Shown here in pieces: positions 18,672-52,314 of a stretch of 64,000 bases of DNA. Within the stretch, counting starts at the first letter, position 1; each line of letters begins with the position of its first letter. The notes below the pieces were generated by a model. It made no database searches and was not told the origin of the DNA. It saw only the letters and a program-made list of their open reading frames with translations. Origin of the DNA: a virus; the IMG/VR virus record IMGVR_UViG_3300043179_000079, positions 1,138 to 65,137 of that record; one strand, 5' to 3'. The position numbers and the translations under genes are program-made.

Positions 18672-19865
18672 CTAGCAGGCGCCCGAGTGCTCCGCCTTGC
18701 GACACACCGAGCATCTCTCGAACTTACCCAGCACCCTGTCGCCCAGCTCCTTGCGGGCCAGGTGTCCCCCGTGGGGCATCTTGGTCGGGCTCGAAGCGAT
18801 GGAGCGGAAGTTGCCCAGCTCCTGGTTCACGTGCGCGATCGAGCCCTTGGGGGCGGTCATGCCCGGCAGCTTGGGGCGCTTGGTGTTCATCGCGGTGACC
18901 AGGTGGGTCATGTCCGGGTCCGGCTTGCCCTCGGCCTTGGCGGTCGGTTTCTTCACCTCGGGTGGGATCTTCGTCGTCCCCAGCTCCTTGCGGGGCTCCT
19001 TGTCGAACTCGGTGGCGGGCGCCGGGTCGGCGGCCAGGGAGCCGGTCTTCGGGCGGGGGCCGGCGGCCCTCCATGCCTTCGCCATCTTCTTCGGGCCCCT
19101 GTCCGACGGATGGAGGACCGTGGGCTCCCGCTCCATCAGCTTCGAGACCACGTCGTCCGGCGGGGATGTGTGGGACCAGCCCATGCCGCAGTTCCGGCAG
19201 CGGAAGTGCTCCTTCGACCCGAGGTTGCCCAGCAGCATGCCGGGGCCCGAGCAGGTCGGGCACGAGGGGCCGGCGGCGAGGTCGTCGTCCTCGGACTTCG
19301 AGACCTTGGAGCCGGCGGCCGCCATGCGAAAGTGCTCCGCGTACACGCGCCGGGTCTCGTCATCGTGGTGGTCCCCGAGGTGTCCGTGGTCGCGAGACAT
19401 CGAATAGTGGTTGTTGATCACGTGGTTGGACGGATGTACCGTCACGTGGGCCGGCGACGATCCGGCCATCCTGCGTCGAAACCCGTCCCCGTCGAGCGCG
19501 GCCCGGGCCTTGATCTTGGCGTGCTTGTCGTCCTCGGCCATGGCCATCGGGGTGGCGGCAGGTCCCGTCGGCGTGGACTGCACACCGTAGCCCATGGCGG
19601 CGTTCTTCTTCATCGAGTCCTTGTGGATCTTCCAGGCGGCGGCGAAGGCCTTCTCGGGCTCACCCGGGTACTGCGCCTTCAGCTCGTGCATCCTGGCCTC
19701 GCTGAAGCCGGGGGGCGCCTTCTTCTCCAGCTCGGCCTTGGCCAGCTCCTCGGCGGCCGACAGCTCCCTGAGGTGCGCCTCGTGGTCTTCAAGGGCCTTC
19801 TTCAGGGCGCTCGCAAGACCCTTCCTCACCCCGTCAAAGGACCGCGTAGCTGCTGGCTCACTCAT
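18672..19865 (-). CDS. putative processed head-associated protein with zinc ribbons
   Basis: LAKAE, VSKSE, MAKAW motifs; CPTC...CRNC and CSVC; start MSEPAAT after GGGGGAGA. Confidence 0.7.
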   Translation of the reverse strand: MSEPAATRSFDGVRKGLASALKKALEDHEAHLRELSAAEELAKAELEKKAPPGFSEARMHELKAQYPGEPEKAFAAAWKIHKDSMKKNAAMGYGVQSTPTGPAATPMAMAEDDKHAKIKARAALDGDGFRRRMAGSSPAHVTVHPSNHVINNHYSMSRDHGHLGDHHDDETRRVYAEHFRMAAAGSKVSKSEDDDLAAGPSCPTCSGPGMLLGNLGSKEHFRCRNCGMGWSHTSPPDDVVSKLMEREPTVLHPSDRGPKKMAKAWRAAGPRPKTGSLAADPAPATEFDKEPRKELGTTKIPPEVKKPTAKAEGKPDPDMTHLVTAMNTKRPKLPGMTAPKGSIAHVNQELGNFRSIASSPTKMPHGGHLARKELGDRVLGKFERCSVCRKAEHSGAC

Positions 19866-19894
19866 CCGGATTGGTCTCCCCCGCTTCGGGCATG

Positions 19895-19901
19895 AAGATT
19901 G
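19895..19901 (-). promoter_or_regulatory. candidate late-promoter box CAATCTT
   Basis: 29 nt upstream of ATG 19865. Confidence 0.5.
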
Positions 19902-19971
19902 TCCGAGGGTTGACAACAAATCGGTCGGAAAAACTACACGATGGCGCGACGACCCTTACAAGACCGCGCGA

Positions 19972-23484: not shown

Positions 23485-23789
23485 CAAGGTCAAGGAAGTT
23501 GCTCAGGGCCGCCGCGTCCTCGGCCTACACGGCCCTCCTGTACTGCAGCGGGCTCGCGTGCGCGGCGCTCGGCTTCTCCTCGGAGTCTAGCCTAGACGCC
23601 TGGCTGGGGGCGATGGCGCTGGCGGCGTGCATGGTGGCCCTGGAGGCCCGGGCGAGGAGGCGCGGCCTGGAGGAAGGCTACCTCCAGGGGGTCCTGGTCC
23701 AGGAGAAGAGGGAGGTACGGGCGCTTAGATCGATGACGAGATCCGCTCCAGCAGGGCGGGGGCGACCTCGCGCTCGAAGGTCTCCATGA
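23481..23789 (+). CDS. two-TM membrane protein
   Basis: TTGA overlap start; two hydrophobic helices; tail overlaps convergent gene. Confidence 0.5.
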   Translation: MTRSRKLLRAAASSAYTALLYCSGLACAALGFSSESSLDAWLGAMALAACMVALEARARRRGLEEGYLQGVLVQEKREVRALRSMTRSAPAGRGRPRARRSP

Positions 23790-24570: not shown

Positions 24571-24581
24571 GGCGACCCTCC

Positions 24582-25568
24582 TTAGTGGATCGAGGGGTTG
24601 CGGGCGCTGGCGGGGTGCCCGGCCGGGTCCTGCGCCAGGACCATCCCCGAGCGGACGCTCACCCAGGATACGCTGCCGTCCTCGTGCCGGACCTTGACCT
24701 TGCCGTCGTGCTGGGTCCCGACCGGGAGGTTGAGCTTCACGCGACCCGCCTCGGCGCCTCCGATACCCTTCTCCACCGGGGCACCCTCGGCGGCCGGGGC
24801 GGGAGGGGCGGACGGGGGCGGGGCCGCCTCCGTCCTGGGCAGGAGCCTGGCGGCGTCCCGCACGGCGTCCAGCAGCTCGGCCAGGGCCTCGACCACGGCG
24901 GGGGCCCGCTCCTTGAGGGCGGCCAGCTCGCGGGCCCGGCCCTGCATGGCCCTCAGCACGCCGGCCAGGCGCTCGCGGGCCTCGTCGCCCTCCTTAGCGG
25001 CCCTGGCCTTCGAGGCGCCCTCGGTCTCCCCGGAGGCCTGGGCGGCCTCGCGCAGCTCGTCGGCCAGAGAGGCTTGAGCGGGCTTCTGGGTCTGGGGCTC
25101 GACCTCGGCCTTGCCCAGGCCGTCTCCGTACTCCTCGGCCATCTTGGCGCCCTCGGAACGCTCAGCGCTCAGGCTAGCCGCCACCTCGGCCTCTACCTCG
25201 GGGGAGTGCACCACGGCCCGGTCCCCGCCGCGCAGCTTGGCGGCGTACAGGGCCTTGGCGGCCTCGGACAGGCGCGCCCCGACCCCCACCGACACGGTGG
25301 CGCCGGTGGCCTCCTGGTACCTGGCCCGGACGTCCTCCAGCCGGTCTAGGCGGGCGGCGGACACGGTGGCCCGGCCCTCGTCCCCTCCCATCTGCACCAG
25401 GGCCCCTCCGCCCTCGACGCACCAGGACTCGAACACGCGGTTGCCGCGGTCGATGGCCCCGCTAAGGCGGGCCAGCTCCTCGGGCTGGTCGTGCATGGTG
25501 GCCAGCCCCACGAGGCGACCTATCCGGTCGCCATCCCAGGCGATCCACACGCTAGAGTCGAGTTTCAT
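24582..25568 (-). CDS. minimal CRISPR polymerase (mCpol)-like nucleotide cyclase domain plus C-terminal extension
   Basis: WDGDRIG (25527-25535), MGGDEG (25377-25388), TVSVGVG.RLSEA.KAL.AAK..G; followed by GLGKAE. Confidence 0.75.
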   Translation of the reverse strand: MKLDSSVWIAWDGDRIGRLVGLATMHDQPEELARLSGAIDRGNRVFESWCVEGGGALVQMGGDEGRATVSAARLDRLEDVRARYQEATGATVSVGVGARLSEAAKALYAAKLRGGDRAVVHSPEVEAEVAASLSAERSEGAKMAEEYGDGLGKAEVEPQTQKPAQASLADELREAAQASGETEGASKARAAKEGDEARERLAGVLRAMQGRARELAALKERAPAVVEALAELLDAVRDAARLLPRTEAAPPPSAPPAPAAEGAPVEKGIGGAEAGRVKLNLPVGTQHDGKVKVRHEDGSVSWVSVRSGMVLAQDPAGHPASARNPSIH

Positions 25569-26190
25569 AGTAAAATCTCCGATCGCAAGACACACGACCA
25601 CGCTGCACAGAGCGCCGAATTGCGGCCCGATCTACCCCGTAATGCCGGGCAGCAGCTCCCACGGAGTTGAACCGATTGCCCAGGTCGTCACAGACCGCCT
25701 TACCGGGGCGAGAGGCCTCCATGGCCAGACGATGAGCCTGGCTGAGCGGCCTACCGAGCTTGGCTTGCCGAATCTTCTCCTTTGACTCCGGCGACCATAC
25801 CCGATCTCGCGACCACGGAGCCGGGCGTCCAAGAAGCTGCAATGACCTCGCCGCTCGCTGCTCTGGCGTGTACCTGTAACCGGAGGTGCCCCCACCCCCC
25901 TCTGTGGCGTTCGTCAAGCGTCCGCTTCGACCGAGACTCTTGATCCAGGACACCTCCGCCTTGTCCAGCGCCTCACGGCCACCCAAAATCGTCTCAAGGA
26001 CGACCCACCGTGGACGAAGACCCTTGCGTTGTAGACACTGAAGCCATCGGTCACGGTGGGAGTCGTCGTGGATCTTCAAATGCGCCCTTACCCTGGCTTT
26101 GACATCTTGCGTTGTCTGCCCGACATACCTGACCTCGTTGGTCTCAGGATCGATAAGACCGTAAACAAGGCCACAAACTCCGGGCTCCAC
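25552..26190 (-). CDS. GIY-YIG homing endonuclease with NUMOD-like tail
   Basis: VYGLIDP...VRYVGQT...E..WI...LTN.TEGG; WSPESKEKIR; RFNSVGAAARHYG. Confidence 0.9.
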   Translation of the reverse strand: MEPGVCGLVYGLIDPETNEVRYVGQTTQDVKARVRAHLKIHDDSHRDRWLQCLQRKGLRPRWVVLETILGGREALDKAEVSWIKSLGRSGRLTNATEGGGGTSGYRYTPEQRAARSLQLLGRPAPWSRDRVWSPESKEKIRQAKLGRPLSQAHRLAMEASRPGKAVCDDLGNRFNSVGAAARHYGVDRAAIRRSVQRGRVSCDRRFYYETRL

Positions 26191-26196
26191 GGACCC

Positions 26197-26203: not shown

Positions 26204-26265
26204 CCCCCCTTGACGAGGTCGAGGTCGGGAGGCTACCATCTACCCATGACGCACAGGAGCACGAG

Positions 26266-26766: not shown

Positions 26767-26951
26767 GGTCCGCTCGGTACGCCGTCTCGGCCCTCGTCGT
26801 GGGGACGTACGCGCTCCTCGTTTCCCCGGCCGTCGGCCCCCGACCGGCCGGCCAGCTAGCAGCCCTGATGGCGGCCCTGGTCGCGCTGGCCTGCGCCCTA
26901 CCCGAGGGTCGAGCGGGCCGCCTCGACCGCCCCGAGGGCGGCCTTCGCTGA
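26763..26951 (+). CDS. small two-TM membrane protein
   Basis: GTGA overlap with SLT gene; two hydrophobic segments. Confidence 0.55.
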   Translation: MRSARYAVSALVVGTYALLVSPAVGPRPAGQLAALMAALVALACALPEGRAGRLDRPEGGLR

Positions 26952-27689
26952 GCTGGCCAGCCGGGCCGAGGAGGCCGCGCTCCTGGCGCGGAAGGCGGCG
27001 TTGGCGGCCTCTACCACGTCGTTCGAGGCCCCCGCCGACCGGTCGTTGACCGGCTCGGCCAGGCCGTCCTCCCTCTGCAGGAGGGAGGCGAGGGGTAGGC
27101 GGCGGTCTCCGTCCAGCCGGAAGTGGTGGGCCGTGCGGGCCCTGCCGGCCTCGCGCACGTGCAGTCGCTCCCCGGCCAGGCGCCTCGCCTCCGACAGGAG
27201 GTGGCTGAGGTCCCACTCCTCGATCCCGTGGTCGCTCCCCACCAGCGCGCCGAAGGCGGCCACGGGCTCGGCCTTGGCCAGGCCGCCGACCCCGCGGTCC
27301 CGCAGGAACTCCAGGGCCACCTCGTCGGCCGAGTGCGGGGCGAAGGCGTAGACGCGGGCCGTCCGGGGCGACCTGGAGGCGGCGGCCACCTCGGGAGGCG
27401 GCTCCCCGTTGGGGTTGTGCCCGAGGGAGCGCATGTAGACCCCGTAGAGCAGGCCGTGCCGGGCGGCGGCGCCTACGTCACCGGCCGCGTGGGCCGCGCG
27501 CATGCCCGCCAGGTGGTGGGCGGCGGCGGCGGAGGACCGGTGGGCCACGTAGTCGGCGTACGCCCGCTCCTCCGCCTCGTGGCGGTCGAGGCCGGCGCCC
27601 AGCTCGTGGACCGCGGACCGGGCCTCCAGCTCGACCTGGTCCTCCGGGCGCACGAGGGCGTGCCGGCCGCGCCACTGGTGCCTAGCCAC
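26898..27689 (-). CDS. putative head-associated two-domain protein
   Basis: GTG start overlapping upstream stop; central GLAKAE motif. Confidence 0.7.
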   Translation of the reverse strand: MARHQWRGRHALVRPEDQVELEARSAVHELGAGLDRHEAEERAYADYVAHRSSAAAAHHLAGMRAAHAAGDVGAAARHGLLYGVYMRSLGHNPNGEPPPEVAAASRSPRTARVYAFAPHSADEVALEFLRDRGVGGLAKAEPVAAFGALVGSDHGIEEWDLSHLLSEARRLAGERLHVREAGRARTAHHFRLDGDRRLPLASLLQREDGLAEPVNDRSAGASNDVVEAANAAFRARSAASSARLASSAKAALGAVEAARSTLG

Positions 27690-28506
27690 GGCGGACCTCC
27701 TCGCAGAAGGTGGCCAGCGCCTCGGCGTCCCAGCCGTCGAACGACACGACGACGGTATCCGGTCCAAAGCCCTTGAAGGACACCGCCTTGGCCACGGCCT
27801 GGAAGCAGGCGCACAGGGCCAGGTCGTCGCCGCTCATCTGGGGGCGCCCGCAGGCGCGGCACGGGGCCTCCAGCTCCGACCTCATGAACTGGGCCTGCCT
27901 GGGGCCCTTGGCGCCCTGGGCCTTGGGGGCCTTCGGGGCGGCCGGGGAGGTTGCCTTGACCCCAGGCTGCTTCTGGGACGGGGTGGGAGGGGTCGGGGCC
28001 TCGGGGGCGCTGGGCTTGTGGGCGGGGCCCGGGGCGGACGCGCCGCCTCCCCCGCCCCCTCGGTTGGCCTTCGCCATGCCGCGGGCCCGGTCCCGGATGT
28101 CCTTGACCGTGGGGACGCGGCGGCGCTCCCAGACGGCCGCCGCCAGGGCGTCGAGCGACTTGCCGAGCCTCAGCAGGGGCTGCCCCACCGCGGGGCGAGA
28201 GCGGCCGGCTGCGTCGCACATGACCAGGAGGGCGGCGGCCAGGCCGGCCTCCCCGGAGCCGGAGGTCTGGACGTCCCCGACCCGTACCGTCCAGCCGCCC
28301 GACTTGACCAGGAGGGCGGCCTCGGGGCGGCCCGGGGCGGGGCCGTCGTACCCTTGTGCGGTCGCCAGGCGGGACCAGGCGAGGGCCGTGCGCGGCGCCA
28401 GGGAGCCCTCCAGGTCCGGGGCCCGCTCGGCGGCCGTCCGGAGGGCGGCGGCGCCGTCCCGGCCCAGCACGTCCTCCATCAGCCTCGCCGTACCCGGATG
28501 CGTCAT
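27682..28506 (-). CDS. putative head-associated protein with C-terminal zinc finger
   Basis: LVKS, LGKS, MAKA, VAKA motifs; CRAC...CAC. Confidence 0.75.
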   Translation of the reverse strand: MTHPGTARLMEDVLGRDGAAALRTAAERAPDLEGSLAPRTALAWSRLATAQGYDGPAPGRPEAALLVKSGGWTVRVGDVQTSGSGEAGLAAALLVMCDAAGRSRPAVGQPLLRLGKSLDALAAAVWERRRVPTVKDIRDRARGMAKANRGGGGGGASAPGPAHKPSAPEAPTPPTPSQKQPGVKATSPAAPKAPKAQGAKGPRQAQFMRSELEAPCRACGRPQMSGDDLALCACFQAVAKAVSFKGFGPDTVVVSFDGWDAEALATFCEEVRRG

Positions 28507-31543: not shown

Positions 31544-33838
31544 CTATACTACCCTCGTGCTGGCGTACGGGTCAACGAACTTCTCTTCGGGGTCGGGGAG
31601 GGTGTCCGCCGGCCGGTCCTCCGGCTCGATCGGGGGGTCTACGTGGTCCTTCAGGAAGGAGTCCTCCCTGCCCCAGGAGGCGGCCCTGAGGAGGTGGTCG
31701 TACCTGGCGTTGAAGCCCCGGCGCACGTGCTCCCGCTCCCGCGGGTCCCTTATCATACCCAGCCTCGCCTCGAAGACCCTCTTGACCTCGGGGGCCGCCT
31801 TGGACCACCACGCCATGGTGCGCTTGACGTCTCCCGGGCCTCGCTCCTGGTCTTCCCCGGCCAGGGCGCTGTTCTGGTACTGGTCGTAGAGGCTCGTGTA
31901 CGTCCTCCAGTGTCTGCCTGTGCCGTAGTCGTAGCTCATCGCGTTGTCGATGGCGAGGGGGCGCCCCCTCGCCATCATGAGGTTGCCTGGGTGGCGGTCG
32001 GTGTTCTGGGACAGGAAGTCCATCACCGCGATCCTCCGTAGGTCCTCCCTGGCGGTGGCGGACACCCTGAAGCTCTGCTCGTGGTCGGCCTCCGGGTCCA
32101 GGTGCACGGCCAGCATGGGCACCGGGCCCGCGGATCCCCGGGCGAACACCACCGACACCTTCTGGTGCAGGCGGCCGATGCCGGCGGCGTGGTAGAGGGC
32201 CTGGTTGGTCATCTCGGACCACCCCAGCTTGGGGTGCCTCGTGCCGTACTGCCGGTGGTCCTCGTGGTACGGCTTGAGGAGGAAGGAGTGCTGGGCCCCC
32301 TTCATGACCACCTTAGGGGAGACCCCGGTGACGCCCTCGCTCCGATCCTCCACCGTGTTGTCCGGGTGCGCGAGGGAGGCCCGGAGGTCGTCGAACACGG
32401 CCCGGTGCTGCTTTCGCTCCCACGAGGGCTCGGCGTGGTGGTCGGTGGGAGGGGCCTGGGGGTCGTGCGGGTGCGTCTTCCCGTGCATGGCATCGACCTC
32501 GGGCGCGGGGACGGCCTTGGCCAGACCGACCCCCAGGCCCGTAGCCCACGCCCGGTTCACCGAGAAGTCCGCCAGCTCCGAGGACGCTGCCGCCTGCAGG
32601 GCCGACAGCCGGTCCAGGCTGGGCTGCGGGTCAACCCCGTACCGGGCGAGGGCGAGGGCCAGCCGCGCCCGGTCCACGGACCCCAGCCAGGACCTCAGGG
32701 ACCTCTCCCCGTCCACGGTGGCGCGCGGGAGCCCCGCCAGGCGCTCCCCGGGCGGCAGGCGCGCCCACCCCTCGGGCGCCCACACCCGCAGGTAGTAGGG
32801 GGTGAAGCTGTTGGGGTCGTTCGCCGGGTCGAACCCGCGGCCGGCCAGGGCCGACCCCTGGTCGATGAGCTGGACCGGGCGGTCCTCGGACGAGAGGACG
32901 TTCCGGCTGTGCCGGTCGGTCTGACCCAGGACCCAGTCCGCGGCCGCCAGCATGTGCAGGGTGCCGTCCCCGAGCAGGGGGAGCAGCGCCAGCCGCAGGC
33001 CGGCCTGGTCGTCGCGGAAGCGCCGGTACATGGGGGCGAACCCGGCCGCCTCGGAGAGCCACTCGACGGCGGCGTACTGCCGGCCGTCCACGAGGACCAG
33101 GTCCCCGCGCGGGGCGTAGGCGCCCAGGCCCATCCCGTCCAGAGCGTGCCAGAAGGCGGCCTCGCGCTGGCTCTGGGTGGCGGTCTCGTCACGCGCGCCG
33201 GCCGCCGGGGACTGGCGACCCGAGCCGGGCTTGAGCAGGAGGGCGCGGCCGGTCTCGGGGTCATCCGCCAGGACGGCGCCCGCGGCATGCTTGCCCCCCC
33301 TGAGGGAGACGGGGTGGGTGCGCCCCGCCTTGACGGCCCTGGCGATTGCCCCGGCCGCCTCGCGGGCCTCGGGCGCTCCGGGCGCCACCTGCGCCGACTC
33401 CTTGAGGCCCTCGGCCGAGTCGTCCACCACGGCCTCGCTCTTCCGGACGCCCTCGACCGCGGCCAGGCCGCGCAGGGCCAGCCGGTTCTCCTCGGTCGGC
33501 TCCAGCCCGGCGGCGGACAGGGCCGCCGCCTCGTCGTCGCCCTCGTGCAGGACGGCGTGCGGCCGGTGGCTCGGGTCGTCGTGCAGGCCGCCCTCCCGGA
33601 GGAGGCGCGCCGCCTCCATCAGGGAGTCCACCCCGAGGGACCCCCTCGGGAACTCGGGCTCCTCCTCGTGCCACGCGTCGAACATCTGGTGGTGGGCCAG
33701 GCGCTCCAGCAGGCTCTGCGCCGACGGCGGCGACGGGATGAACGCCCACGGGGCGCGGTCCTGCGCCCAGCGGAACAGGTCATCGTCGGTGGCCAGCTCG
33801 TGGCCCTCCCCGGTGTACAGGTTGGTGATGCGGTACAT
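31544..33838 (-). CDS. tandem HipA/PI3-4K-like kinase polyprotein
   Basis: Kinase 1: LLKP, REAA, DRHSRN, LIDQG; kinase 2: LLKPY, WSE, DRHPGN, AIDNA; linkers VRKSE and LAKAV. Confidence 0.8.
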   Translation of the reverse strand: MYRITNLYTGEGHELATDDDLFRWAQDRAPWAFIPSPPSAQSLLERLAHHQMFDAWHEEEPEFPRGSLGVDSLMEAARLLREGGLHDDPSHRPHAVLHEGDDEAAALSAAGLEPTEENRLALRGLAAVEGVRKSEAVVDDSAEGLKESAQVAPGAPEAREAAGAIARAVKAGRTHPVSLRGGKHAAGAVLADDPETGRALLLKPGSGRQSPAAGARDETATQSQREAAFWHALDGMGLGAYAPRGDLVLVDGRQYAAVEWLSEAAGFAPMYRRFRDDQAGLRLALLPLLGDGTLHMLAAADWVLGQTDRHSRNVLSSEDRPVQLIDQGSALAGRGFDPANDPNSFTPYYLRVWAPEGWARLPPGERLAGLPRATVDGERSLRSWLGSVDRARLALALARYGVDPQPSLDRLSALQAAASSELADFSVNRAWATGLGVGLAKAVPAPEVDAMHGKTHPHDPQAPPTDHHAEPSWERKQHRAVFDDLRASLAHPDNTVEDRSEGVTGVSPKVVMKGAQHSFLLKPYHEDHRQYGTRHPKLGWSEMTNQALYHAAGIGRLHQKVSVVFARGSAGPVPMLAVHLDPEADHEQSFRVSATAREDLRRIAVMDFLSQNTDRHPGNLMMARGRPLAIDNAMSYDYGTGRHWRTYTSLYDQYQNSALAGEDQERGPGDVKRTMAWWSKAAPEVKRVFEARLGMIRDPREREHVRRGFNARYDHLLRAASWGREDSFLKDHVDPPIEPEDRPADTLPDPEEKFVDPYASTRVV

Positions 33839-34909: not shown

Positions 34910-37496
34910 GGCGCCTCATGGGGTGCCTCGGGCCGACCGACGCCTCCTCCGAGGCCCGGGAGGAGTCGGGGGAGTGCTGGGCGGCCTCGCGGACGAGCCG
35001 CACGTGCTCCGGGCCGGCCTCCACGTGCCGCATCAGGGCCCCGACCTGGTGGGTGGGGTGGCGGCCGTCGCGGGTCAGGCGCGCGGCGGCGAGCAGGCGC
35101 AGCGTGTACGGGCTCCGGATGCGCGCCACGGCGGCCTGCGACACGGCCGGGTTGTCGTCCAGCGCGGCCCGCAGCAGGTCTCCCTCGCTCGGGTTGGGTG
35201 AGGCCAGCACCGCCAGCGCCCGCTCGTCGGGGTCGTGGTGGTCGAGGAGGGGGTCGGATTTCTGAAGACTTTTTCCTCCTCCTCTAGCAAATCTTTCCAC
35301 CTGTTCCTCCTCTTCTTCATCCGACAAACGAGGTATATTGTCACGATATCTGCGTTGTTCATGCCATGCGTGACCGATCTCATGTAGAATAGAGACCTCG
35401 ATCTCCCTTCTCATCTCTGGTTCGGTCACGTATCTGGCGTGTTCGGCAAGGGAAGGGGTGTGGAGGACGATATGAGGAGCGGCGTGCGTAAACCTGACGA
35501 AGGTGCTTACCGCGTTGTGGTTTTTTTCTGGCAGTTTGGTTGCGTAATGGATTGTGGGCTCGATCATCCCCAGCTTACGAAAGGTGTTTTTGTGGTCCTT
35601 TAGGACACGTTGCACCATGTCCACCATAGAAGGAGGCGGAGACGGGTCCTTTTGGTAGCCACGCATGACGGGGCGTCTTGCCATCTGGAGCCAGTGTTCT
35701 GGGTCGTATGTAGATTTCTCCAGGCACTCCTGCGACGCGAGGAGGTCGTCCTCGCTCTTCCCCACGGGGGCGGCGCCGACGTCCGCGGGCAGGAGCTGGT
35801 CGGCGTACGCCCGCACGTGGTGGTACGCGCGCTTCATGGCGTCATCGACCAGGCGGGCCCCCTGCTCGTCCCGCTCGTTGGCGGAGTGGTACCTCCGCCT
35901 GGTCTGCGGGTCGTTCACGTAGTTGTGCAGCAGCGCGACGCACTCCTCGTTGAAGGACCGGCCGTCGGGCTGGTAGCCGCGGTGCTCGGCGAACCTCTCG
36001 ACGTGGGACCTGAGGGCCTGAGGCAGAGAGCCGACGAGGCGCTCCGCCAGCCGCCAGCGCGCGGGCAGGCCGTGCCGGACCTCGACCTCCCGCATGGCGA
36101 GGTGGAAGTCCTCGTGCAGGGCCGTCGCCGCGGCCGAGTTGTGGTGCTGCGCGTCGTACGGCCTGGCCTCCCCGGCGAGCGCGAAGGCCGCCCTGGACCC
36201 CGGGACGCTGCTGGCGGTCCCCATGAGGCCCGGCCTGCTGCCGCTCTGGACGTCCACGGCGTCGCTGGCGCTCCTGGCCCGGACCGCGGACGCCCGGTCG
36301 GCGTTGTAGGCGTCCAGGTGGCGGGCGTGCGCCGCCCCTATCAGCCTCATCCGCAGACCGGCCTCCTGGGTGGTGGTCACGAAGGGCGTCTCCCGGCGCG
36401 GCTCGATGCCCAGGCCCTTGAACGCGATCTGGGGCTGGAACTTCTCCAGCGGGACCGACTTGAGGGTGTAGGAGTAGGGCGGATACACGGACCCCTGCTT
36501 CTCGCTGGGCGAGTAGGCTAGACCGTGCTTCCGCGCCAGGGCCTCGTGCACCCTCCTGGCCCCCTCGGTGTGGGTGCCGCCGGTCACCGAGTCCACTCCG
36601 AGCACGTGCTTGGCGTGGACGAGGGCGGCCTCGTACATGGCAGTCCCCAAACCCTTGCCTCGGAACGCCCTGGCGAGAGATGAGTGGATCTCGATCCCGG
36701 GCCGCCTTCCGGGACGCGGCTTCCACACCTCCAGCCTCCCCACCATGTCGCCGCGGTGGCGCAGGCGCACCTCGAAGATGCCGTGGTCGGGGTTGTCGAA
36801 CAGCTCCATGTCGGTATCGCCGCCACGGTGGGTCTCGGGGAGGAGGTGCCCGTAGTCGTAATACCAACTGCCGGCGCCCTTCTGCCTGCCCGTGGGCAGG
36901 TCCGCTATCGCCTTTCCGAGGGGCTGCGTCGATGACGCCCGGCGCACGTACTGGCGCACCACGTTATCCGGCCCCTCGGGGCCGTGCAGGTAGTCCCACA
37001 CCTCGGGGTCGAGCCCCTGGTGGACCGGGTGGAAGGTCCACTCGGCGGCCTCCCGGTCGGGGTCGAGCAGGCCGTGGGCCTGCCCCGAGACCAGGGCGGT
37101 GAACACGTGCAGCGTCTTGCCGTCCGGGGTCGTGCTCGTGCCCGCGGGCGTGACCGACATCGGGCGCAGGCCGGTCTCCTCGAACAGCTCGCGGCGCGCG
37201 GCCTCCTCGGGCAGCTCGCCCTCGTCCGCGTGCCCGCCCGGCAGGGACCAGCGGCCGTTGTCGTGCCGCCTCCCCAGCAGCAGGCGCCCGTGGGCGTCGT
37301 ACGCCATCACGAGGGCCACCTCCCGCGGCCCCTCGGACTTCTTGACGTCTCGGAATCCGGAGAAGTCGTCCCTGGCGACGAACCCGGCCTTCACCTCGTC
37401 GGCGTGGTCGTCGCAAGCCGGGACGTACGCCATGCCCTCGGCGTGGAGCACCTTCTTGGTGGCGTCCCTCTTGCACCTATCGCAGCGCTCGGCCAC
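34902..37496 (-). CDS. multi-effector polyprotein: Zn-finger, NUDIX, GNAT, zincin, zincin, helical repeat
   Basis: Nudix box GHADEGELPEEAARRELFEETGL; GNAT AFRGKGLGTAMY; LHEDFH and LHEIGH; linkers VKKS, LGKA, LEKF, VGKS, LEKS, LQKS. Confidence 0.85.
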   Translation of the reverse strand: MAERCDRCKRDATKKVLHAEGMAYVPACDDHADEVKAGFVARDDFSGFRDVKKSEGPREVALVMAYDAHGRLLLGRRHDNGRWSLPGGHADEGELPEEAARRELFEETGLRPMSVTPAGTSTTPDGKTLHVFTALVSGQAHGLLDPDREAAEWTFHPVHQGLDPEVWDYLHGPEGPDNVVRQYVRRASSTQPLGKAIADLPTGRQKGAGSWYYDYGHLLPETHRGGDTDMELFDNPDHGIFEVRLRHRGDMVGRLEVWKPRPGRRPGIEIHSSLARAFRGKGLGTAMYEAALVHAKHVLGVDSVTGGTHTEGARRVHEALARKHGLAYSPSEKQGSVYPPYSYTLKSVPLEKFQPQIAFKGLGIEPRRETPFVTTTQEAGLRMRLIGAAHARHLDAYNADRASAVRARSASDAVDVQSGSRPGLMGTASSVPGSRAAFALAGEARPYDAQHHNSAAATALHEDFHLAMREVEVRHGLPARWRLAERLVGSLPQALRSHVERFAEHRGYQPDGRSFNEECVALLHNYVNDPQTRRRYHSANERDEQGARLVDDAMKRAYHHVRAYADQLLPADVGAAPVGKSEDDLLASQECLEKSTYDPEHWLQMARRPVMRGYQKDPSPPPSMVDMVQRVLKDHKNTFRKLGMIEPTIHYATKLPEKNHNAVSTFVRFTHAAPHIVLHTPSLAEHARYVTEPEMRREIEVSILHEIGHAWHEQRRYRDNIPRLSDEEEEEQVERFARGGGKSLQKSDPLLDHHDPDERALAVLASPNPSEGDLLRAALDDNPAVSQAAVARIRSPYTLRLLAAARLTRDGRHPTHQVGALMRHVEAGPEHVRLVREAAQHSPDSSRASEEASVGPRHPMRRRG

Positions 37497-38780: not shown

Positions 38781-38787
38781 AAGATTG
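38781..38787 (-). promoter_or_regulatory. candidate late-promoter box CAATCTT
   Basis: Upstream of SD of 38757. Confidence 0.55.
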
Positions 38788-38794
38788 CCCCGCC

Positions 38795-40082: not shown

Positions 40083-41489
40083 TTATGACGTGAGGTTATC
40101 GCAGATCACGTTCTTCCTGGGCTGCATGATGGCCAGCGTGGCGAACCGGAAGAAGGCCTCCGGGGACGCCAGCTCGGTCACCGCCAGCTTGAGGCGCGTG
40201 AAGGGCGCCAGCTCGCGCATCTCCATGGTGTTCCCCTGGACGAGGAACCCGGTGACGAACCCCGGGATCTTGTTGCCGAGGTCGTGGAAGACCGTGGTCG
40301 CCCCGGTCGAGGAGGCCACCCGGCCGATGTACTTGGCCGAGGCCTCGCTGCCGCCGGCCGCGCTGCGGTACACGTTGTGGTACCGGTGCGTGCCCGAGCC
40401 GTGCGTGATGGTGACGACGACCTCGTCGCCGTCCGCCACGATGGTCTCGGCCACCGCCGCCGACTTGCCCGACTCGCCCTTCTCGTTCGCCGAGGTGACG
40501 TAGTAGGTGTAGACCTCGTCCTTGAGGAACGGGGTCACGATGCCCGCGGTCGTGGTGCTGACCGCCGAGGTCAGCGTCGGGGTGCCCGGGCTGTTGCGGC
40601 GGATCGGGGCGGGGCCCGTCTTGCCGGAGAGGAAGCGGCTCTCCTCCAGCTTGACCGTGCCGCCCGAGACGAACTGGCGGCGGAGGTCCGCGCCGGTCGC
40701 GTCCTGGGGGGTGCCCGCCAGGATGATGCGCTCCTTGTCGAACGCGATCTTGTTGTAGGTCGCGTGGACGAGGGGGTCGATGAGGAGCAGGTCGGCCTTG
40801 CCGAAGTTCATGCGGCTGCGCACCGCGGCGTTCTCGATGATGGTCTGCGTCAGCGTTCCGCCGCCGCTCACGACCACCGAGGTGCCGCTGCCGTACTCGC
40901 CGAACATGAGGTCCTGCGCCTGACGCTGCGCGTCCGACTGCCGGACCTGGAGGTCCACGCCGTGCATGTTCGGGAGCTGCGGGACCGCCAGCGGGTTGCC
41001 GTCGAAGACGCCCCCGTTGGAGAAGTCCGCGAGCCCGCGGAACAGGTCGAACTCGATGTCGCCCGCGATCTTGAGGGCGGCCGAGGCGGCCTCCCGCTCG
41101 TCGCTCTTACGGCCGTCGCTCGTCTCGACCATGGTCGAGGCGATCGTCACCTTGCGGGTGTGGCTGTAGAAGCACATCGGGACGGTCACCCGGACGTAGT
41201 CCGAGATCTCCTCTTCGCCGACGTTGCCTTCGAGCTGGGCCGAGCCACCGAAGATGCCGTACGACAACTGGCGGTTGAACTGCCAGAGCGTAGACTTCGC
41301 GGGGCGCGAGTCCACCATCTTCTGCAGCACCATGTCCTTCTCCTCGAAGGTCACGTTCTGCATGACCGGCGACAGGTCCTCGACCTGCAGCGCGCTGCCC
41401 TGGGTCAGGTTGCCTGGGGCGGTCCCTGCGTAGGTACCGGCCTCCAGCGCCTTCACCAGGTCCTGGATGTTCTTGACGAGGTCGTTCAT
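40083..41489 (-). CDS. major capsid protein (Twort/SPO1-like HK97 fold)
   Basis: 468 aa; G.ALQVEDL...TF...PA.ST...F.R...G....EG; short propeptide ending LVK-A. Confidence 0.9.
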   Translation of the reverse strand: MNDLVKNIQDLVKALEAGTYAGTAPGNLTQGSALQVEDLSPVMQNVTFEEKDMVLQKMVDSRPAKSTLWQFNRQLSYGIFGGSAQLEGNVGEEEISDYVRVTVPMCFYSHTRKVTIASTMVETSDGRKSDEREAASAALKIAGDIEFDLFRGLADFSNGGVFDGNPLAVPQLPNMHGVDLQVRQSDAQRQAQDLMFGEYGSGTSVVVSGGGTLTQTIIENAAVRSRMNFGKADLLLIDPLVHATYNKIAFDKERIILAGTPQDATGADLRRQFVSGGTVKLEESRFLSGKTGPAPIRRNSPGTPTLTSAVSTTTAGIVTPFLKDEVYTYYVTSANEKGESGKSAAVAETIVADGDEVVVTITHGSGTHRYHNVYRSAAGGSEASAKYIGRVASSTGATTVFHDLGNKIPGFVTGFLVQGNTMEMRELAPFTRLKLAVTELASPEAFFRFATLAIMQPRKNVICDNLTS

Positions 41490-41526: not shown

Positions 41527-42396
41527 CTACGCCCCCGCGAGGAGGTGCTTGATCTGGGTCAGGTCCGCCTGCTTGAAGCAGTACCGGTTGATGAGGTCGC
41601 GGTCCGACTTGGACAGCTTCGGGTTCTTTGCCGCGTCGCGCAGGCGACGGGTGACCTCCTCCGGGCTCATGTCCTTGGTGGCGTCGGCCTCCGCGGCCGA
41701 CGGGGCGACGTCCGAGAGGGACGTGACCGCCTTGCGGAGCGGGCGCGCGAGCGCCTGCTCGACCGCCTTCACCAGGTGGCCGATGGCCTGCTGGCTGGCG
41801 GCGAGGTCCGCCTGGAGGGCGACCACCTCGGGCGCGGGCGCCGCGGCCGCGGGGGCCGCCTCGCTCTTGCCCATGGCGGGGGCCTCGGGAGGGGGGGCCG
41901 ACTCGGCCGCCGGGGCCTCTGGGGCCGGGGGCGGCATCTTCTCCGCCAGGACGTGCTTGATCGCCTGGTAGTGCGTCAGCAGGTCCGGCATCGAGAGCTT
42001 GCCGTACTCCTCGGCCAGCGCCATCGGGTCAACCGGGTCTCCCGACCCGTCGCCCTCCGCCGCCGGGTCCTGGGAGGGCTCGCCCTCCCCCTCTGCGGGC
42101 GGGGGCGCGCTGCCCTCGGGCGAGCCCGAGGCTGACGCGCTGCCCTCGGCCGGCGGGGAACCCTCGGGGGAGGGCGAGCCCTCCGCGGGGGACCCAGAAG
42201 CCGACGCCGACCCCTCTGCCGGGGGGGCCGAGGCCTCCGGGGCGGGGGGAGCGGTCGCCGACGCGTCGGGCGAGACCTCGGGGGAGGTCGCCTCGCCCGG
42301 GTGGGCCTTGGCCAGAGGGCTCGACTTCAGGAGCGCCGACACCTCGGCGTGCACCTGGTCGAGCATCTCTGCGATCTTGTCCTTCTCGTCAGCCAT
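41527..42396 (-). CDS. scaffolding protein
   Basis: Directly upstream of capsid; acidic, Pro/Ala/Ser low complexity; six K-S/A motifs (LLKS, LAKA, MGKS, LVKA, LRKA, LSKS). Confidence 0.75.
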   Translation of the reverse strand: MADEKDKIAEMLDQVHAEVSALLKSSPLAKAHPGEATSPEVSPDASATAPPAPEASAPPAEGSASASGSPAEGSPSPEGSPPAEGSASASGSPEGSAPPPAEGEGEPSQDPAAEGDGSGDPVDPMALAEEYGKLSMPDLLTHYQAIKHVLAEKMPPPAPEAPAAESAPPPEAPAMGKSEAAPAAAAPAPEVVALQADLAASQQAIGHLVKAVEQALARPLRKAVTSLSDVAPSAAEADATKDMSPEEVTRRLRDAAKNPKLSKSDRDLINRYCFKQADLTQIKHLLAGA

Positions 42397-45654: not shown

Positions 45655-45664
45655 GGTTTACCTC

Positions 45665-47056: not shown

Positions 47057-47058
47057 GG

Positions 47059-48996: not shown

Positions 48997-51900
48997 TTAT
49001 GCCGCGGTCGGGGGGGCTGGCGCCGGGGGTGCCTCGTGGTGCAGGGCGATGGGGCCCTCCCGTCCGGGGACCGCCGAGTGGGCGAGCATCGGGGTCTGCC
49101 CCACCGCGTGGGCGCGCTGCCCGCCCGGGGTCAGCTTCTGCCTCTTGGCCTCGTACAGGGCGCGGTCGGCGTGCTCGGGGGAGTGGCCCAGGCCGATCGA
49201 CATCGACAGCTTGTGGGTCCCCCCGATCGGCGGCAGGGCGTCCATCTTGTCGCGGAGGGCGTGCACGAACCGGAGGGCGTGCTCGTAGGACGGCACGTGC
49301 GCCACGAACTCGTCCCCGCCGTTCCGGTAGAGGTCCTGGAGGTCCGGGTCCCGGAACAGCTTGCCGTGCCCCCGGCCGACCGACTCGTCCATGGCCTCCC
49401 GAGAGGCGCGCCCGAAGGCCTCGATGGCCTGGTCCCCGGCGTCGTGGCCGTGCTGGTTGTTGATGCTGGAGAAGTCGTTTCCGTCCATCGAGATGTAGAC
49501 GCCGGGCCTGCGGCGCGCCCGGAACTCGCTGAAGGCGTACTTGTTCCCGAGGCCGGGGGCCATCTTGTCCTCGTAGATGTGCCGCGTCAAGGCCCGCTCG
49601 ACGTCCGGGTGGACGTGGCCGGCCTGCACCGCCGCGCGGATGTGCTGCAGGGCGGTGTCCGGGCCCATCCTCTCCCCCTCCCCCTTGGACAGGCCGCGCG
49701 CCGGCCTAAGGGTGGCGGCGCCCGTCCGGGCGTTGCGCGCCATCAAGCGGACCAGGCTGGGGGGCACCGGCGACCCGTTCAGGTAGGCCGCGTCCCCGGA
49801 CACCTCCAGGGTGGCGGGGGCGGACATCCCGGCCCGCTGGTACTCGTACACCTCGACGCCGCCCTCGGCGGGCGCCTGGGCGCCCGCCGGTGCCGCCGGC
49901 TGCCGCGGCGCGTCCGCCCGCTCGCCGCCGGCCTCGACCTCGTCGCGCGGGTAGTCGTGGTCGTGCTGGACCCGCAGGTGGGGGCTCGCCTCCAGGCTGT
50001 GCATCATGGCCACCGCCCGCTCGTCCGCCGGCCCCTCGGGCAGGAGGCGCGACAGGACGCCGTGGTAGTCCTCCAGGTGGCGGACCGATCCGTCGTGGAC
50101 CATGTACCTCCCGACCCTGACGGCGCCGCCGTCGTGGAGGGCGTGCACCTCCCTGACGCTCGGCCCGCCGTGGTACAGCGCCTCCCCGGCCCCCTCCGAG
50201 GGCAGGGCCGCCAGGTGTGAGCGCAGCTCGGCCGTCAGGCGCTCCAGCCGGGGGGCCGAGCCGGCCATCATGGCGGTGGCCTGTCTCCCGGCGGTGCGCC
50301 TCTCCGCGTGGTCCAGCAGGCGGGGGGCCAGGAAGGCGTGGTACAGCATGGACGCCGGGACCTCCCCGAAGGCCTCCGCGTACCGGCGGTGCACCAGGGC
50401 GGTGCGCAGCGGCAGGTCCGAGTGGGCCTCCGGGACGGGCTCCCCCTTGGCCATGAAGGGGTCGATCGCCTCCCAGTAGGGGGCGTGGGTGGTCAGCTCG
50501 TTGGCCGCCAGGCCGCCTGGCATGTTGCGGAGGCGCTCGTGCGGGGCGATGGCCATCCAGTGCCGCCAGAAGGCGGGGAAGATGGCGTCCTCCCGGGTCG
50601 CGAAGTGCTTCCCCCATACCGGGTGCTCCACCATGTGCTGCACCGCCGGGTGGTTCTTGGAGTACCACCGGTCGATGGAGTCGAGCAGGTGGGTGTGCCG
50701 CGGGTCCCACAGCAGGTTCTTCACGTACTCGATGGTGTCCGAGTCCCGGCGGATACGGAGGCCGAACAGGTGGCGCAGGAAGTGGGTGTCCGGCACCGTG
50801 ACGTTGCCGCCGCCCATCATGCCCCAGGCGTAGCGCGAGGTCTTGGGGGCCAGGCCGTGCGGGTGGATGCCCTCGTACCGGCCCGGGTCCGGCTTGCCCT
50901 TGCCGGCAGCGACCTTGCGGCGCAGCTCGCTCCGGACGCTCTCGATCTTGTGCCGCATCAGCTCGCCGACCGCCGACCGGGCGTCGGCGCCGTGCCTGTT
51001 GGCCAGCTCGACCATCTGGTCGTGCATCTGGTGGTAGCGCAGGATGTTGACGCCCTTCTCTTTGGCCATGGCGTACCGCTGCAGGACGCCCGCCTGTGTG
51101 TGAGCGCCGGGGTTTGCAATAAAGTGCGACCGAGCGTGCTCGGGGTACTCGTCGGGCCGGTTGAGCTGCTTCCAGTGCTGGATGGCGGGCTCGAAGCCGG
51201 GCTTGCTGGGGTCGTGCCCGGTGTGGGCCATGGCGTCCACCAGCTTGGAGTACATCAGCTCCTGGATCGGGACCGGGGTGTTGGGGCTCAGCTCCGAGAA
51301 CAGGACGCTGTGCATCACGACCTCGGACGGCAGCCTCCTCTGCCTCAGGAGGTCGTGCGTCCGCACCCACCCGTGCATGGCGCGTCCGTGCGCTTCCTCG
51401 ATTTTCGGGTCGGACAGGATCTTCTTGAAGTGCTCGTCGGTGCCGTCGTGCGCCGGCAGGTAGAGGCGGAGGTCGCCCCGGGGCGTCCGCATGACCCCGG
51501 AGGTCTCGTCCACGAACGGGCGGGCCAGCTTGGGGTTCTCCTTGATCGGGGCCCCCTGCACGGTGAGGCCCGCGGGCTTGACCGACACCCCCGGCAGGGT
51601 CTGCTGGCGGGCCGCCTTGGGCTTCGCCTGCTCCCTGGCCGGCTTGGGCAGGGCCATGGGCCGACGAGCCTCCGTCTTCTTCTGGAGGGCGCCCCCCTGG
51701 ACCAGCGAGCCCGGGGACGAGGCCCCGTAGCCGGCCTCCAGGGCCTTGCTCAGCTCGGCGGGAAGCTCGGGGTCGGCCGACACCTCGACCGAGCCGGCCA
51801 GGCGGGAGGCCTCCCGCTTCTCCGTCCGCTTGCCGTCCTCGACCACCCCGCTCAGGCAGGTGCGGTTGGCCGGGCGCACGGTGGCGGCCACGGCCCGGGC

Positions 51901-52314
51901 TACCGTGGAGGTCAGGCGGTGCCCCCTTCGCTCCAGCGTAGACCCCTCGATGCTGTACCGCACCAAGATGGGCTCCTTGTTGGCCTGGCAGTCCCGGATG
52001 ATGGCCGCCAGGGCGCGGGCGCCCTCGTGGCCGCTGTCGTCGAAGAGGCGCGCCACGACGTAGATGTACGGCACCTTGACGCAGGACAGGTAGTACCTCT
52101 GCCGGTCGTTCTCGCAGTCCTCGGGCTTGTAAATCTTCTTGGCCGACACTATCTTGCCGACCACGTCGAGGGGGGTGGAGTCCTGGCCCGATCGATGCTC
52201 GAAGTTCAGGGTGGCCTTGCCCTCCTCCAGGTCCGAGATGTCGCAGCCCTCGACCTCCAGCACCTCGCCCGCCGTGTCGAGGGCCTCTGACGCGGCCACG
52301 CCATCGATGATCAT
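48997..52314 (-). CDS. prohead protease polyprotein: protease, HhH-GPD-like domain, unknown domain, GGDEF
   Basis: N-terminal IIDG.A.SE..D..GE...NFEH...YSIEG; GLAPKT...PDTHFLR; DGNDFSSINN.HGH..GD...GGDEF; linkers LSKA, MAKG, LSKG. Confidence 0.85.
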   Translation of the reverse strand: MIIDGVAASEALDTAGEVLEVEGCDISDLEEGKATLNFEHRSGQDSTPLDVVGKIVSAKKIYKPEDCENDRQRYYLSCVKVPYIYVVARLFDDSGHEGARALAAIIRDCQANKEPILVRYSIEGSTLERRGHRLTSTVARAVAATVRPANRTCLSGVVEDGKRTEKREASRLAGSVEVSADPELPAELSKALEAGYGASSPGSLVQGGALQKKTEARRPMALPKPAREQAKPKAARQQTLPGVSVKPAGLTVQGAPIKENPKLARPFVDETSGVMRTPRGDLRLYLPAHDGTDEHFKKILSDPKIEEAHGRAMHGWVRTHDLLRQRRLPSEVVMHSVLFSELSPNTPVPIQELMYSKLVDAMAHTGHDPSKPGFEPAIQHWKQLNRPDEYPEHARSHFIANPGAHTQAGVLQRYAMAKEKGVNILRYHQMHDQMVELANRHGADARSAVGELMRHKIESVRSELRRKVAAGKGKPDPGRYEGIHPHGLAPKTSRYAWGMMGGGNVTVPDTHFLRHLFGLRIRRDSDTIEYVKNLLWDPRHTHLLDSIDRWYSKNHPAVQHMVEHPVWGKHFATREDAIFPAFWRHWMAIAPHERLRNMPGGLAANELTTHAPYWEAIDPFMAKGEPVPEAHSDLPLRTALVHRRYAEAFGEVPASMLYHAFLAPRLLDHAERRTAGRQATAMMAGSAPRLERLTAELRSHLAALPSEGAGEALYHGGPSVREVHALHDGGAVRVGRYMVHDGSVRHLEDYHGVLSRLLPEGPADERAVAMMHSLEASPHLRVQHDHDYPRDEVEAGGERADAPRQPAAPAGAQAPAEGGVEVYEYQRAGMSAPATLEVSGDAAYLNGSPVPPSLVRLMARNARTGAATLRPARGLSKGEGERMGPDTALQHIRAAVQAGHVHPDVERALTRHIYEDKMAPGLGNKYAFSEFRARRRPGVYISMDGNDFSSINNQHGHDAGDQAIEAFGRASREAMDESVGRGHGKLFRDPDLQDLYRNGGDEFVAHVPSYEHALRFVHALRDKMDALPPIGGTHKLSMSIGLGHSPEHADRALYEAKRQKLTPGGQRAHAVGQTPMLAHSAVPGREGPIALHHEAPPAPAPPTAA

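Follow-up and report, generated by a model that had tools for sequence, protein, structure and literature searches.

We analysed a 64-kb stretch of viral DNA (the window), out of the 67.7-kb IMG/VR record IMGVR_UViG_3300043179_000079 (about 41% complete, 70% GC), for a candidate system in which a prohead protease would cut enzyme precursors at a short lysine-containing motif inside the phage head and the enzymes would be delivered with the DNA. By BLAST of all called proteins, the minus strand, from a helicase-like gene just past the high end of the window to the tail sheath gene at 16140, was collinear with positions 1 to 42 kb of Myxococcus phage Mx1 (OR576727.2, 169.6 kb), whose capsid protein is 56% identical to that of the window. 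This DNA represents the late region of a myophage akin to Mx1, with a head module of the Herelleviridae (SPO1/Twort) type; judging from Mx1, its host would be of a myxobacterium-type, high-GC Gram-negative lineage. Genes for TerL, a hypothetical protein, the portal, a MuF-like protein, a protease polyprotein, five inserts and g42412 are followed by those for the scaffold, the capsid, small proteins, a NUDIX/GNAT protein, two kinase-like proteins and neck proteins, including an mCpol-domain protein, and finally the sheath. Pfam matched NUDIX, GNAT, a PI3/PI4-kinase-type catalytic loop, mCpol, GGDEF and Phage_portal in the window, which bears out the NUDIX, GNAT, kinase and mCpol assignments made in an earlier note on this DNA from the letters and their translations. 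The principal genes are the following.

58789-60726, minus strand: TerL
55589..57769, minus strand: portal, 726 amino acids (Pfam Phage_portal and PHROG portal families)
48997..52314, minus strand: protease polyprotein, 1105 amino acids (protease domain, capsid N-arm copy, conserved domain of unknown function, GGDEF)
41527..42396, minus strand: putative scaffold, 289 amino acids, Ala/Pro/Ser/Glu-rich (named from its composition and its position between the protease and capsid genes)
40083..41489, minus strand: major capsid protein, 468 amino acids (PHROG 752)
34902..37496, minus strand: NUDIX/GNAT polyvalent protein, 864 amino acids (Pfam NUDIX and GNAT)
33842..34909, minus strand: kinase-like paralog, 355 amino acids, NRH in the catalytic loop, no motif site
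31544..33838, minus strand: double kinase-like protein, 764 amino acids (Pfam PI3_PI4_kinase loop; two kinase-like halves)
26898..27767, minus strand: g26898, conserved neck-region protein
24582..25601, minus strand: mCpol-domain protein, 339 amino acids (Pfam mCpol, E = 3.9e-11)
18672..19919, minus strand: g18672, Lys-rich Cys-motif protein adjoining the sheath gene, start codon uncertain
16140-18641, minus strand: tail sheath

The architecture is polyvalent, with NUDIX and GNAT joined in 34902-37496, protease and GGDEF in 48997-52314 and two kinase-like domains in 31544-33838. The motif was counted in two forms, [LVM]xK[SAG] (M1) and [LVM]xK[SAG][DE] (M2, i.e., with an acidic P2' residue), the cut being predicted after the Lys (P1; marked by a slash below). 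Counts were made in the window, in Mx1 and in the genomes G1 (complete, 39% GC), G2 (complete, 47% GC) and G3 (51% GC), which together span 39 to 70% GC. Late minus-strand proteins of the window held 45 M1 sites (20 expected) and 17 M2 sites (2.4 expected); the remaining proteins of the contig held 12 (8.7 expected) and 4 (1.0 expected), respectively. Because the sites sit in Ala/Gly/Ser/Glu-rich linkers, for which whole-protein shuffles may overstate enrichment, these were replaced by shuffles within 20-residue blocks (local shuffles), and the reversed motif served as a composition-matched control. In the head module of the window, M1 was about 2-fold above expectation (39 observed, 17.2 in local shuffles, 21 for the reversed motif) and M2 about 7-fold (16 observed, 2.2 in local shuffles, 1 for the reversed motif). 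M2 counts in the other genomes were as follows.

Mx1, head module: 15 observed, 3 reversed, 3.2 local shuffle
G2, head module: 16 observed, 0 reversed, 2.3 local shuffle
G3, head module: 20 observed, 6 reversed, 3.3 local shuffle
G1, head module: 22 observed, 7 reversed, 4.3 local shuffle
Mx1, rest of genome: 13 observed, 19 reversed, 12.4 local shuffle
G2, rest of genome: 8 observed, 26 reversed, 12.2 local shuffle
G3, rest of genome: 5 observed, 4 reversed, 6.5 local shuffle
G1, rest of genome: 8 observed, 7 reversed, 7.8 local shuffle

The comparison of late with early proteins that the earlier note had proposed came out as enrichment in head-module proteins, with no excess of M2 over reversed motif and local shuffles in the rest of the Mx1, G2, G3 and G1 genomes. 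Structural proteins are not the sole carriers of the signal, since sets made up of enzyme proteins only were enriched too (M2 versus local shuffle, 7 versus 0.6 in the window, 6 versus 1.2 in Mx1 and 8 versus 1.4 in G3). When the residues around 2002 head-module Lys were compared, without any preset motif, with those around 6317 Lys elsewhere, Leu at P3 (P = 3e-8), Ser at P1' (P = 1e-8) and Glu at P2' (P = 2e-7) stood out; the core motif is therefore L-x-K/S-E, with Val, Met or Ile as variants at P3 and Ala or Gly at P1'. Disorder-promoting residues were more frequent around the sites than otherwise (0.62 to 0.66 versus 0.54, P of about 0.002), and sites were kept among the genomes of 39 to 70% GC while their positions turned over. 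Within this late region, the sheath, the neck proteins and all but one of the five inserted decoration/fibre-like genes had no M2 site, which is the pattern expected for external and tail proteins that are never inside the prohead. These five inserts (631, 463, 327, 332 and 120 amino acids; 43293-48954, minus strand), which are absent from Mx1 and lie between the protease gene and g42412, jointly hold one M2 site. The 463-amino-acid protein matches head-decoration and tail-fibre PHROGs, and the scarcity of M2 in the group fits external virion proteins. In all five genomes the motif is a genuine signal and is specific to the proteins of the head module. Every site cited in the earlier note, whether in the capsid, scaffold, portal, mCpol, kinase or NUDIX protein or in the protease polyprotein, was found at its codon; the portal sites K65 and K676 are real as well, the portal gene itself lying outside the range 18672-52314 to which the note had confined the system.

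At the capsid N terminus the motif falls on a predicted maturation cut.

41451-41453, minus strand: codon of the predicted capsid maturation cut K13/A14 (DLVK/A; motif and alignment)

The capsid protein is homologous to those of Herelleviridae, more distantly than to that of Mx1 (PDB 9vel, SPO1 gp6.1, E = 2e-16; 5lii, E = 1e-13). DLVK13/ALEAG aligned with VVK24/SFQTG of the full-length capsid protein of a Staphylococcus Herelleviridae phage (5lii_P, 463 amino acids), and the 439-amino-acid chain of the same Staphylococcus phage capsid (9row_B) starts with Ser25, right behind this Lys. SPO1 gp6.1 reads ALNK/ALEAG at the aligned position. For the cut of Herelleviridae capsid proteins at this Lys, we rely on these two deposited PDB chains. 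The alignments support the coincidence of the capsid motif with the homologous Herelleviridae maturation site. In the putative scaffold, six motif sites were present (0.86 expected), of which KLSK/SDRDLI is kept in Mx1. The portal carries K65 (ALEK/S), K215, K355 and K676 (SLSK/G); K676, behind a Gly-rich tail, is conserved in Mx1, and conserved sites lie close to both ends of the protein. Taken together with the placement of the sites, this makes it most likely that the prohead protease cuts after Lys in Leu/Val/Met-x-Lys/Ser/Ala/Gly-(Glu/Asp), and in the classical substrates the motif is very probably its site. The motif might instead be a docking or modification signal, serving scaffold or portal binding or Lys modification. 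In favour of this, cutting is so far a prediction for this phage group, and the copy of the capsid N-arm described below suggests that binding matters as well; the alignment of the motif with the start of a deposited Herelleviridae capsid chain, together with its placement at domain ends, is better explained by cutting than by docking, and we regard a pure docking role as highly improbable.

The putative enzyme itself would be the N-terminal part of the 1105-amino-acid polyprotein, which carries motif sites at K190 (51745), K623 (50446) and K877 (49684) and comprises the following parts.

51829..52314, minus strand: prohead (assemblin-like) serine protease domain, residues 1-162 (AlphaFold2 [AF2] model, alignment, gene context)
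51640..51756, minus strand: capsid N-arm copy of 25 to 30 residues including the cut site (ELSK190/ALEAGYG...GALQ), directly behind the protease domain (BLAST of capsid versus protease proteins)
49135..49527, minus strand: GGDEF nucleotide-cyclase domain, residues ~930-1060 (Pfam GGDEF, E = 1.4e-8; PDB GGDEF matches)

An AF2 model of residues 1 to 190, built on a shallow alignment of 8 sequences, had a predicted local distance difference test (pLDDT) score of 69. Upon re-alignment it matched T4 gp21 (5jbl_B) with a Z score of 8.8 (root mean square deviation of 3.3 Å over 122 residues) and about 30 herpesvirus protease entries with Z scores of 4.4 to 6.7, compared to 4.5 or less for unrelated MCE/Mla domains; the E-values from Foldseek alone were weak (0.02 or more). 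The candidate catalytic pair His40 and Ser121 (SIEG) was invariant in the alignment of 8 relatives, and the language-model neighbours of the domain were S77/S78/S80 clusters. The gene sits between the portal and the scaffold and capsid genes and is collinear with the Mx1 gene annotated 'putative prohead protease'; in a tblastn search of 50,697 phage records, the protease domain found Mx1 only. Because curated hidden Markov models (HMMs) do not match the domain, it is filed as protease-like by fold and context and not as a member of S77/S78. The model points to a prohead serine protease of the assemblin-type fold in the N-terminal ~160 residues.

Directly behind this domain, the polyprotein repeats the N-arm of the capsid protein. 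In 8 relatives an HMM of the capsid N-arm picked out the protease polyprotein (E = 2e-13 to 8e-6) and no other protein, and the copy covaries with the capsid, Mx1 reading KAMEAGNF in both. The prohead protease of the Twortvirinae Mammaliicoccus phage PMS2 (L030, 18057-18866) has SINK/AFETGHTTSPETQTGAGALRREAL at this place, and the PMS2 capsid has QALK/AFTTGYATTPDTQVDAAALRREAL; since a Twortvirinae prohead protease carries it too, the N-arm copy is ancestral to this head type. In the lineage of the window, the predicted N-arm-bearing protease is extended by about 900 residues of extra domains. Entry into the prohead, of the protease as well as of anything fused to its rear, may be signalled by this copy. 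The GGDEF domain lies downstream of the GLSK/GE site K877 (codon 49684-49686) and corresponds to a separate 'nucleotide cyclase' gene in Mx1.

Among the enzyme proteins, the NUDIX/GNAT protein has five sites, K53 (37338), K195 (36912), K580 (35757), K594 (35715) and K746 (35259), which delimit a leader, the NUDIX domain, the GNAT domain with a HEDFH helical domain, a spacer, a cassette with a HEIGH motif and a C-terminal helical part. An AF2 model was obtained on a shallow alignment, the homology search having returned three relatives only. In this model K53 ends a low-confidence leader next to the NUDIX domain (pLDDT of ~95), which begins 4 residues past K53/S; K195 lies in the dip that separates NUDIX from GNAT, K580 and K594 lie in a low-pLDDT segment (residues 571-618) and K746 in another (residues 735-753). 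When sites were mapped onto AF2 domain boundaries, as the earlier note had suggested, none of the five in this protein fell inside a confident domain. In four proteins the start of the GNAT unit is invariably ...K/(A/M)IADLPxG; the window and G3 have this start, P0002 has it three times, and Mx1 has a looser form, K/MALASIPAG. The cassette stood out by base composition.

35259..35717, minus strand: low-GC cassette, codons 594-746, with the HEIGH (zincin-like) domain (maximum-likelihood change-points in GC content at third codon positions [GC3])

Across these 153 codons GC3 was 0.54, compared to 0.96 in the rest of the NUDIX gene, and the two change-points, codons 594 and 746, are exactly the P1 Lys codons of CLEK/S and SLQK/S. 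Mx1, G2, G3 and nine loci centred on the major capsid protein yielded no homolog of the cassette.

The HExxH motifs of this protein, HEDFH at residue 461 and HEIGH at residue 705, lie in predicted helical and alpha/beta segments and came with no peptidase family match, so that of the note's NUDIX/GNAT/zincin assignment the first two parts are backed by Pfam, and the zincin part rests solely on the two motifs. They raise the question of whether the polyproteins are cut by zincin-like (HExxH, MPTase-type) domains of their own, or by a host protease, rather than by the prohead protease. One HExxH motif is also present in the NUDIX protein of Mx1, and a model of MPTase autoprocessing has been set out (PMC5512222). 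An own peptidase was ruled out as the general cause, because most motif-bearing polyproteins have no HExxH, including all six in G3, the kinases, the mCpol proteins and the protease polyproteins. The same motif, moreover, occurs on capsid, scaffold and portal, and G1 and G2, in which searches with the window proteins found no NUDIX polyprotein, still had the head-module enrichment. We consider cutting by such peptidases very unlikely.

The double kinase-like protein has sites at K133 (33440, VRK/S), which is conserved in Mx1, at K441 (32516, GLAK/A) and at K513. In the mCpol protein, GLGK/AE at K164 (codon 25110-25112) lies just behind the mCpol domain (residues 20-130), and a second site is at K278; the ortholog in G3 (23671-26229; G3 comprises L023-L029) is an 852-amino-acid protein with PIGK/SE at K162, fused to a GNAT module. 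The neck-region protein g26898 has GGLAK/AE at K165, where Mx1 reads GELAK/AL, and g18672 has 5 sites, 2 of them with an acidic P2' residue.

Comparison of relatives showed sites where proteins had been joined or split. In L008, a NUDIX domain and the kinase paralog form one protein of 1010 amino acids, and PIMK627/SELSK632/A lies exactly where the 355-amino-acid gene of the window starts. The 764-amino-acid kinase of the window is itself a fusion, with GLAK441/A in the joint (residues ~434-486), and K53/S of the NUDIX protein sits where the relatives begin their protein. The MuF-like protein behaves likewise.

54828..55589, minus strand: MuF-like minor head protein, 253 amino acids (weak Pfam Phage_Mu_F match, E = 3.7e-4)

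This protein has no motif site in the window; its ortholog in G3 (53683-58011) is a polyvalent protein of 1442 amino acids with 8 motif sites, in which an extension of ~1200 amino acids follows PLEK258/AE, exactly at the joint. Overall, a site lay within 15 residues of the joint in 7 of 24 raw cases (3.0 expected) and in 7 of 11 after curation, which dropped truncated open reading frames at locus ends and start codons called too long. Domain order and fusions differed among Mx1, L008, G3 and P0002-P0004, with NUDIX relatives of shuffled order bearing sites at the joints, and the cargo set was reshuffled even between close relatives (MuF and mCpol fusions of G3).

These joints bear on whether the motif is a protease site in capsid, scaffold, portal and protease only, its presence in the enzymes arising incidentally from the composition of linkers or from linkers copied among module genes and the enzymes themselves being ordinary late cytoplasmic proteins, unpackaged and uncut. 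That the strongest per-protein signals were those of scaffold, portal and protease agrees with such a restriction, as do the general preference of Lys residues for low-pLDDT segments and the failure to find a targeting peptide in the enzymes. It does not account for the 5- to 12-fold enrichment of the enzyme-only sets over local shuffles, in which the reversed motif was rare, for the match of sites to fusion and fission joints and, to the codon, to the cassette edges, or for the persistence of sites with turnover of their positions across genomes of 39 to 70% GC. We therefore hold a restriction to the classical substrates to be unlikely, and cutting of the enzyme proteins at the motif to be probable from the pattern of their sites.

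As prohead proteases act inside the assembled prohead, a protein with selected protease sites should be a prohead resident. In the reading that we prefer, the NUDIX/GNAT/HExxH, kinase-like and mCpol proteins and the C-terminal part of the polyprotein, with GGDEF, would co-assemble into the prohead as precursors; activation of the protease would split them into single-domain enzymes, and these would leave the capsid together with the DNA. We put the probability that the head protease cuts packaged enzyme precursors at the motif and that the enzymes are delivered at roughly 60%. Packaging in the head and delivery, taken on their own, we slightly favour, and for ejection and early action the only argument is the analogy to Alt and the internal proteins of T4 and to the ejection proteins of phiKZ and SPN3US.

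The polyproteins might also be packaged and cut but not delivered, as core or scaffold filler, for the handling of DNA, or to be degraded and expelled like scaffold. Multiple cuts in a scaffold do serve its removal, and the propeptides of SPN3US likewise undergo several cuts and are cleared (PMC10052503); g18672, which is K-rich, might bind DNA as an internal protein. Set against this are catalytic signatures that are intact (the Nudix box, GGDEF, GGDE of mCpol and two DRHxxN loops), substrates (nucleotides and proteins) that are found in the cell and not in the capsid, and a domain content that turns over as fast as expected of conflict effectors. Retention without delivery is, in our judgement, distinctly unlikely.

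Several observations weigh against cutting and delivery of the enzymes as proposed here. Pfam and PHROGs gave no match to the protease region, the contig had no match to PF04586 or PF03420 up to an E-value of 10, and the fold match depends on the shallow 8-sequence model with a pLDDT of 69. No capsid-targeting peptide shared by the enzyme proteins was found, the N-arm HMM matching the protease polyprotein only, and the mCpol protein, g26898 and g18672 are encoded amid neck and tail genes, with no obvious route into the head. In the NUDIX protein, 4 of 5 sites were in low-pLDDT segments, compared to 11 of 23 other Lys residues (P = 0.33). Some fusion joints have no site, for example residues ~698-735 of the polyprotein in the window and joints in several relatives; the NUDIX joint of Mx1 reads PIRK/DE, outside the strict motif; and K623 of the polyprotein falls within a conserved block. 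The searchable literature yielded neither a paper that describes the genome or virion proteome of Mx1 nor virion-proteomic or injection data for Mx1-like phages. The site rule is neither complete nor strict, given the joints without sites, the K/DE joint of Mx1 and K623; what the earlier note had described as sites at the domain boundaries of enzymes is borne out at linkers, fusion and fission joints and cassette edges.

A tentative extension, which we think doubtful but worth stating, is that the cut motif is both a biochemical separator and an evolutionary joint, new cassettes recombining in frame at the Lys codon of a site, as the HEIGH cassette would exemplify, with the N-arm copy as a loading tag. 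If so, any domain flanked by L-x-K/S-E and tethered to the N-arm tag would become a virion-delivered effector, which would give a rule for reading and building payloads. If cuts and packaging are real, the enzymes that Mx1-like phages deliver ready-made would comprise kinase-like proteins, an acetyltransferase, a NUDIX hydrolase and the two cyclase-type domains of mCpol and GGDEF, and their plausible targets would be nucleotide signalling and protein regulation in the host. The payload would be readable from sequence by the site rule, and polyvalent proteins would become a predictable processing scheme. The system would also show how new effector modules slot in, and would provide, from nature, a design rule by which foreign proteins could be loaded into capsids. 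As Mx1 can be grown on Myxococcus xanthus, the prediction is open to direct test. Cells of M. xanthus turn spherical after adsorption of Mx1 (reviewed in PMC6070905), which hints at a virion-borne activity, with wall damage inflicted by the tail as an alternative.

Expression of the enzyme genes was considered from their arrangement. They are on the late strand and closely packed, with gaps of 3 to 12 nucleotides or overlaps, and one run of them follows a promoter-like heptamer.

38782..38788, minus strand: promoter-like heptamer GCAATCT, upstream of the run g38356, g37509, NUDIX protein, kinase paralog, kinase

GCAATCT occurred 10 times in the window (about 3 expected from base composition). 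Seven copies, on the minus strand, were 6 to 77 nucleotides upstream of minus-strand gene starts, at 18663 (sheath), 29680 (g29354), 38788 (g38356), 42938 (g42412), 48975 (g47059), 52331 (protease) and 58775 (g57780), which makes GCAATCT a candidate late promoter element. Late strand, tight packing and shared GCAATCT are consistent with late, structural-type expression of the enzyme genes and are no proof of packaging.

Three neighbouring genes were recorded in addition. A DUF7768 / nucleoside 2-deoxyribosyltransferase-like gene (39347-39673, minus strand) lies ~400 nucleotides downstream of the capsid gene, with one small gene between; Mx1 holds thymidylate synthase and dNMP kinase at its place. 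Unusual pyrimidines in Mx1 DNA were described in an old report (PMC6070905) and may bear on this gene. Amid the minus-strand neck genes, a gene with an SLT lytic transglycosylase domain (26056-26766, plus strand) has one M2 site, and its product may be a virion-associated wall-degrading enzyme. The divergent neighbour of the protease gene (52428-53570, plus strand), off the late strand, matches PHROG 1362 (function unknown) and has two M2 sites (P = 0.004).

With the Herelleviridae (SPO1, Twort/K/phi812 and A511), the window shares capsid homology, the position of the cut (K/S or K/A followed by xxxG), gene order and a protease followed by a capsid N-arm copy, which in PMS2 reads SINK/AFETG...GALRREAL. 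It differs from them in the ~900-amino-acid extension of its protease, including GGDEF, and in motif-bearing NUDIX/GNAT, kinase-like and mCpol polyproteins interleaved with neck genes; in PMS2 the protease has 269 amino acids, and the region examined between capsid and sheath holds some six small genes, none of them for an enzyme. HK97 also cuts its capsid protein after Lys (K103/S104), and its gp4 protease, in work of Duda, Oh and Hendrix from 2013, reportedly has a capsid-targeting tail outside the catalytic domain. A segment outside the catalytic domain that carries the protease into the prohead, a feature of HK97 and a putative one of the window, would be common to both, whereas in the window this segment is a copy of the capsid's own N-arm and is followed by large cargo domains.

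In T4, gp21 processes the internal proteins IPI-III and Alt at a hydrophobic-x-Glu motif, and processing in phiKZ is likewise motif directed (gp175 and gp245 being the proteases of phiKZ and SPN3US, respectively). The window would share with T4, phiKZ and SPN3US the use of one protease and one short motif for capsid, portal, scaffold or core and proteins that are later ejected. In SPN3US, one prohead protease processes capsid, portal and ejected head proteins at an A-X-E motif, with 14 sites in nine substrates (PMC10052503). In these phages P1 is Glu and cutting mostly removes N-terminal propeptides or leaders, whereas in the window P1 is Lys and the sites lie between enzyme domains. No N-terminal targeting leader of the T4 type (ending in hydrophobic-x-Glu) was recognised in the enzyme proteins, so that the likeness is one of working mode and not of membership.

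In 2017, Iyer, Burroughs, Anand, de Souza and Aravind (PMC5512222) defined polyvalent proteins, in which domains of the kinase, GNAT, GGDEF and peptidase kinds occur. They proposed that such proteins are delivered along with the DNA and split into units, chiefly by MPTase domains, and they found assemblin-like peptidases only at the C termini of these proteins. Unrelated enzyme domains (kinase, GNAT, GGDEF, NUDIX-associated, metallopeptidase-like) in one late protein, a mosaic architecture among relatives and a link to MuF and portal are shared with the window, in which, by contrast, the assemblin-like protease is N-terminal, most polyproteins have no HExxH and joints are marked by a motif that is also that of capsid and scaffold. 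The claim of novelty in the earlier note was overstated, as motif-directed processing in SPN3US (PMC10052503) and processing of polyvalent proteins into units (PMC5512222) are known; it stands for the punctuation itself, since the searchable literature yielded no description of a Lys-type prohead-protease motif between domains in an Mx1-like, Herelleviridae-type head module. Compared to T4, phiKZ, SPN3US and the polyvalent proteins of 2017, the candidate system differs by P1 Lys in a Herelleviridae-type head, sites as putative separators between domains, an N-terminal protease followed by an N-arm copy and cargo, and a cassette inserted at site codons.

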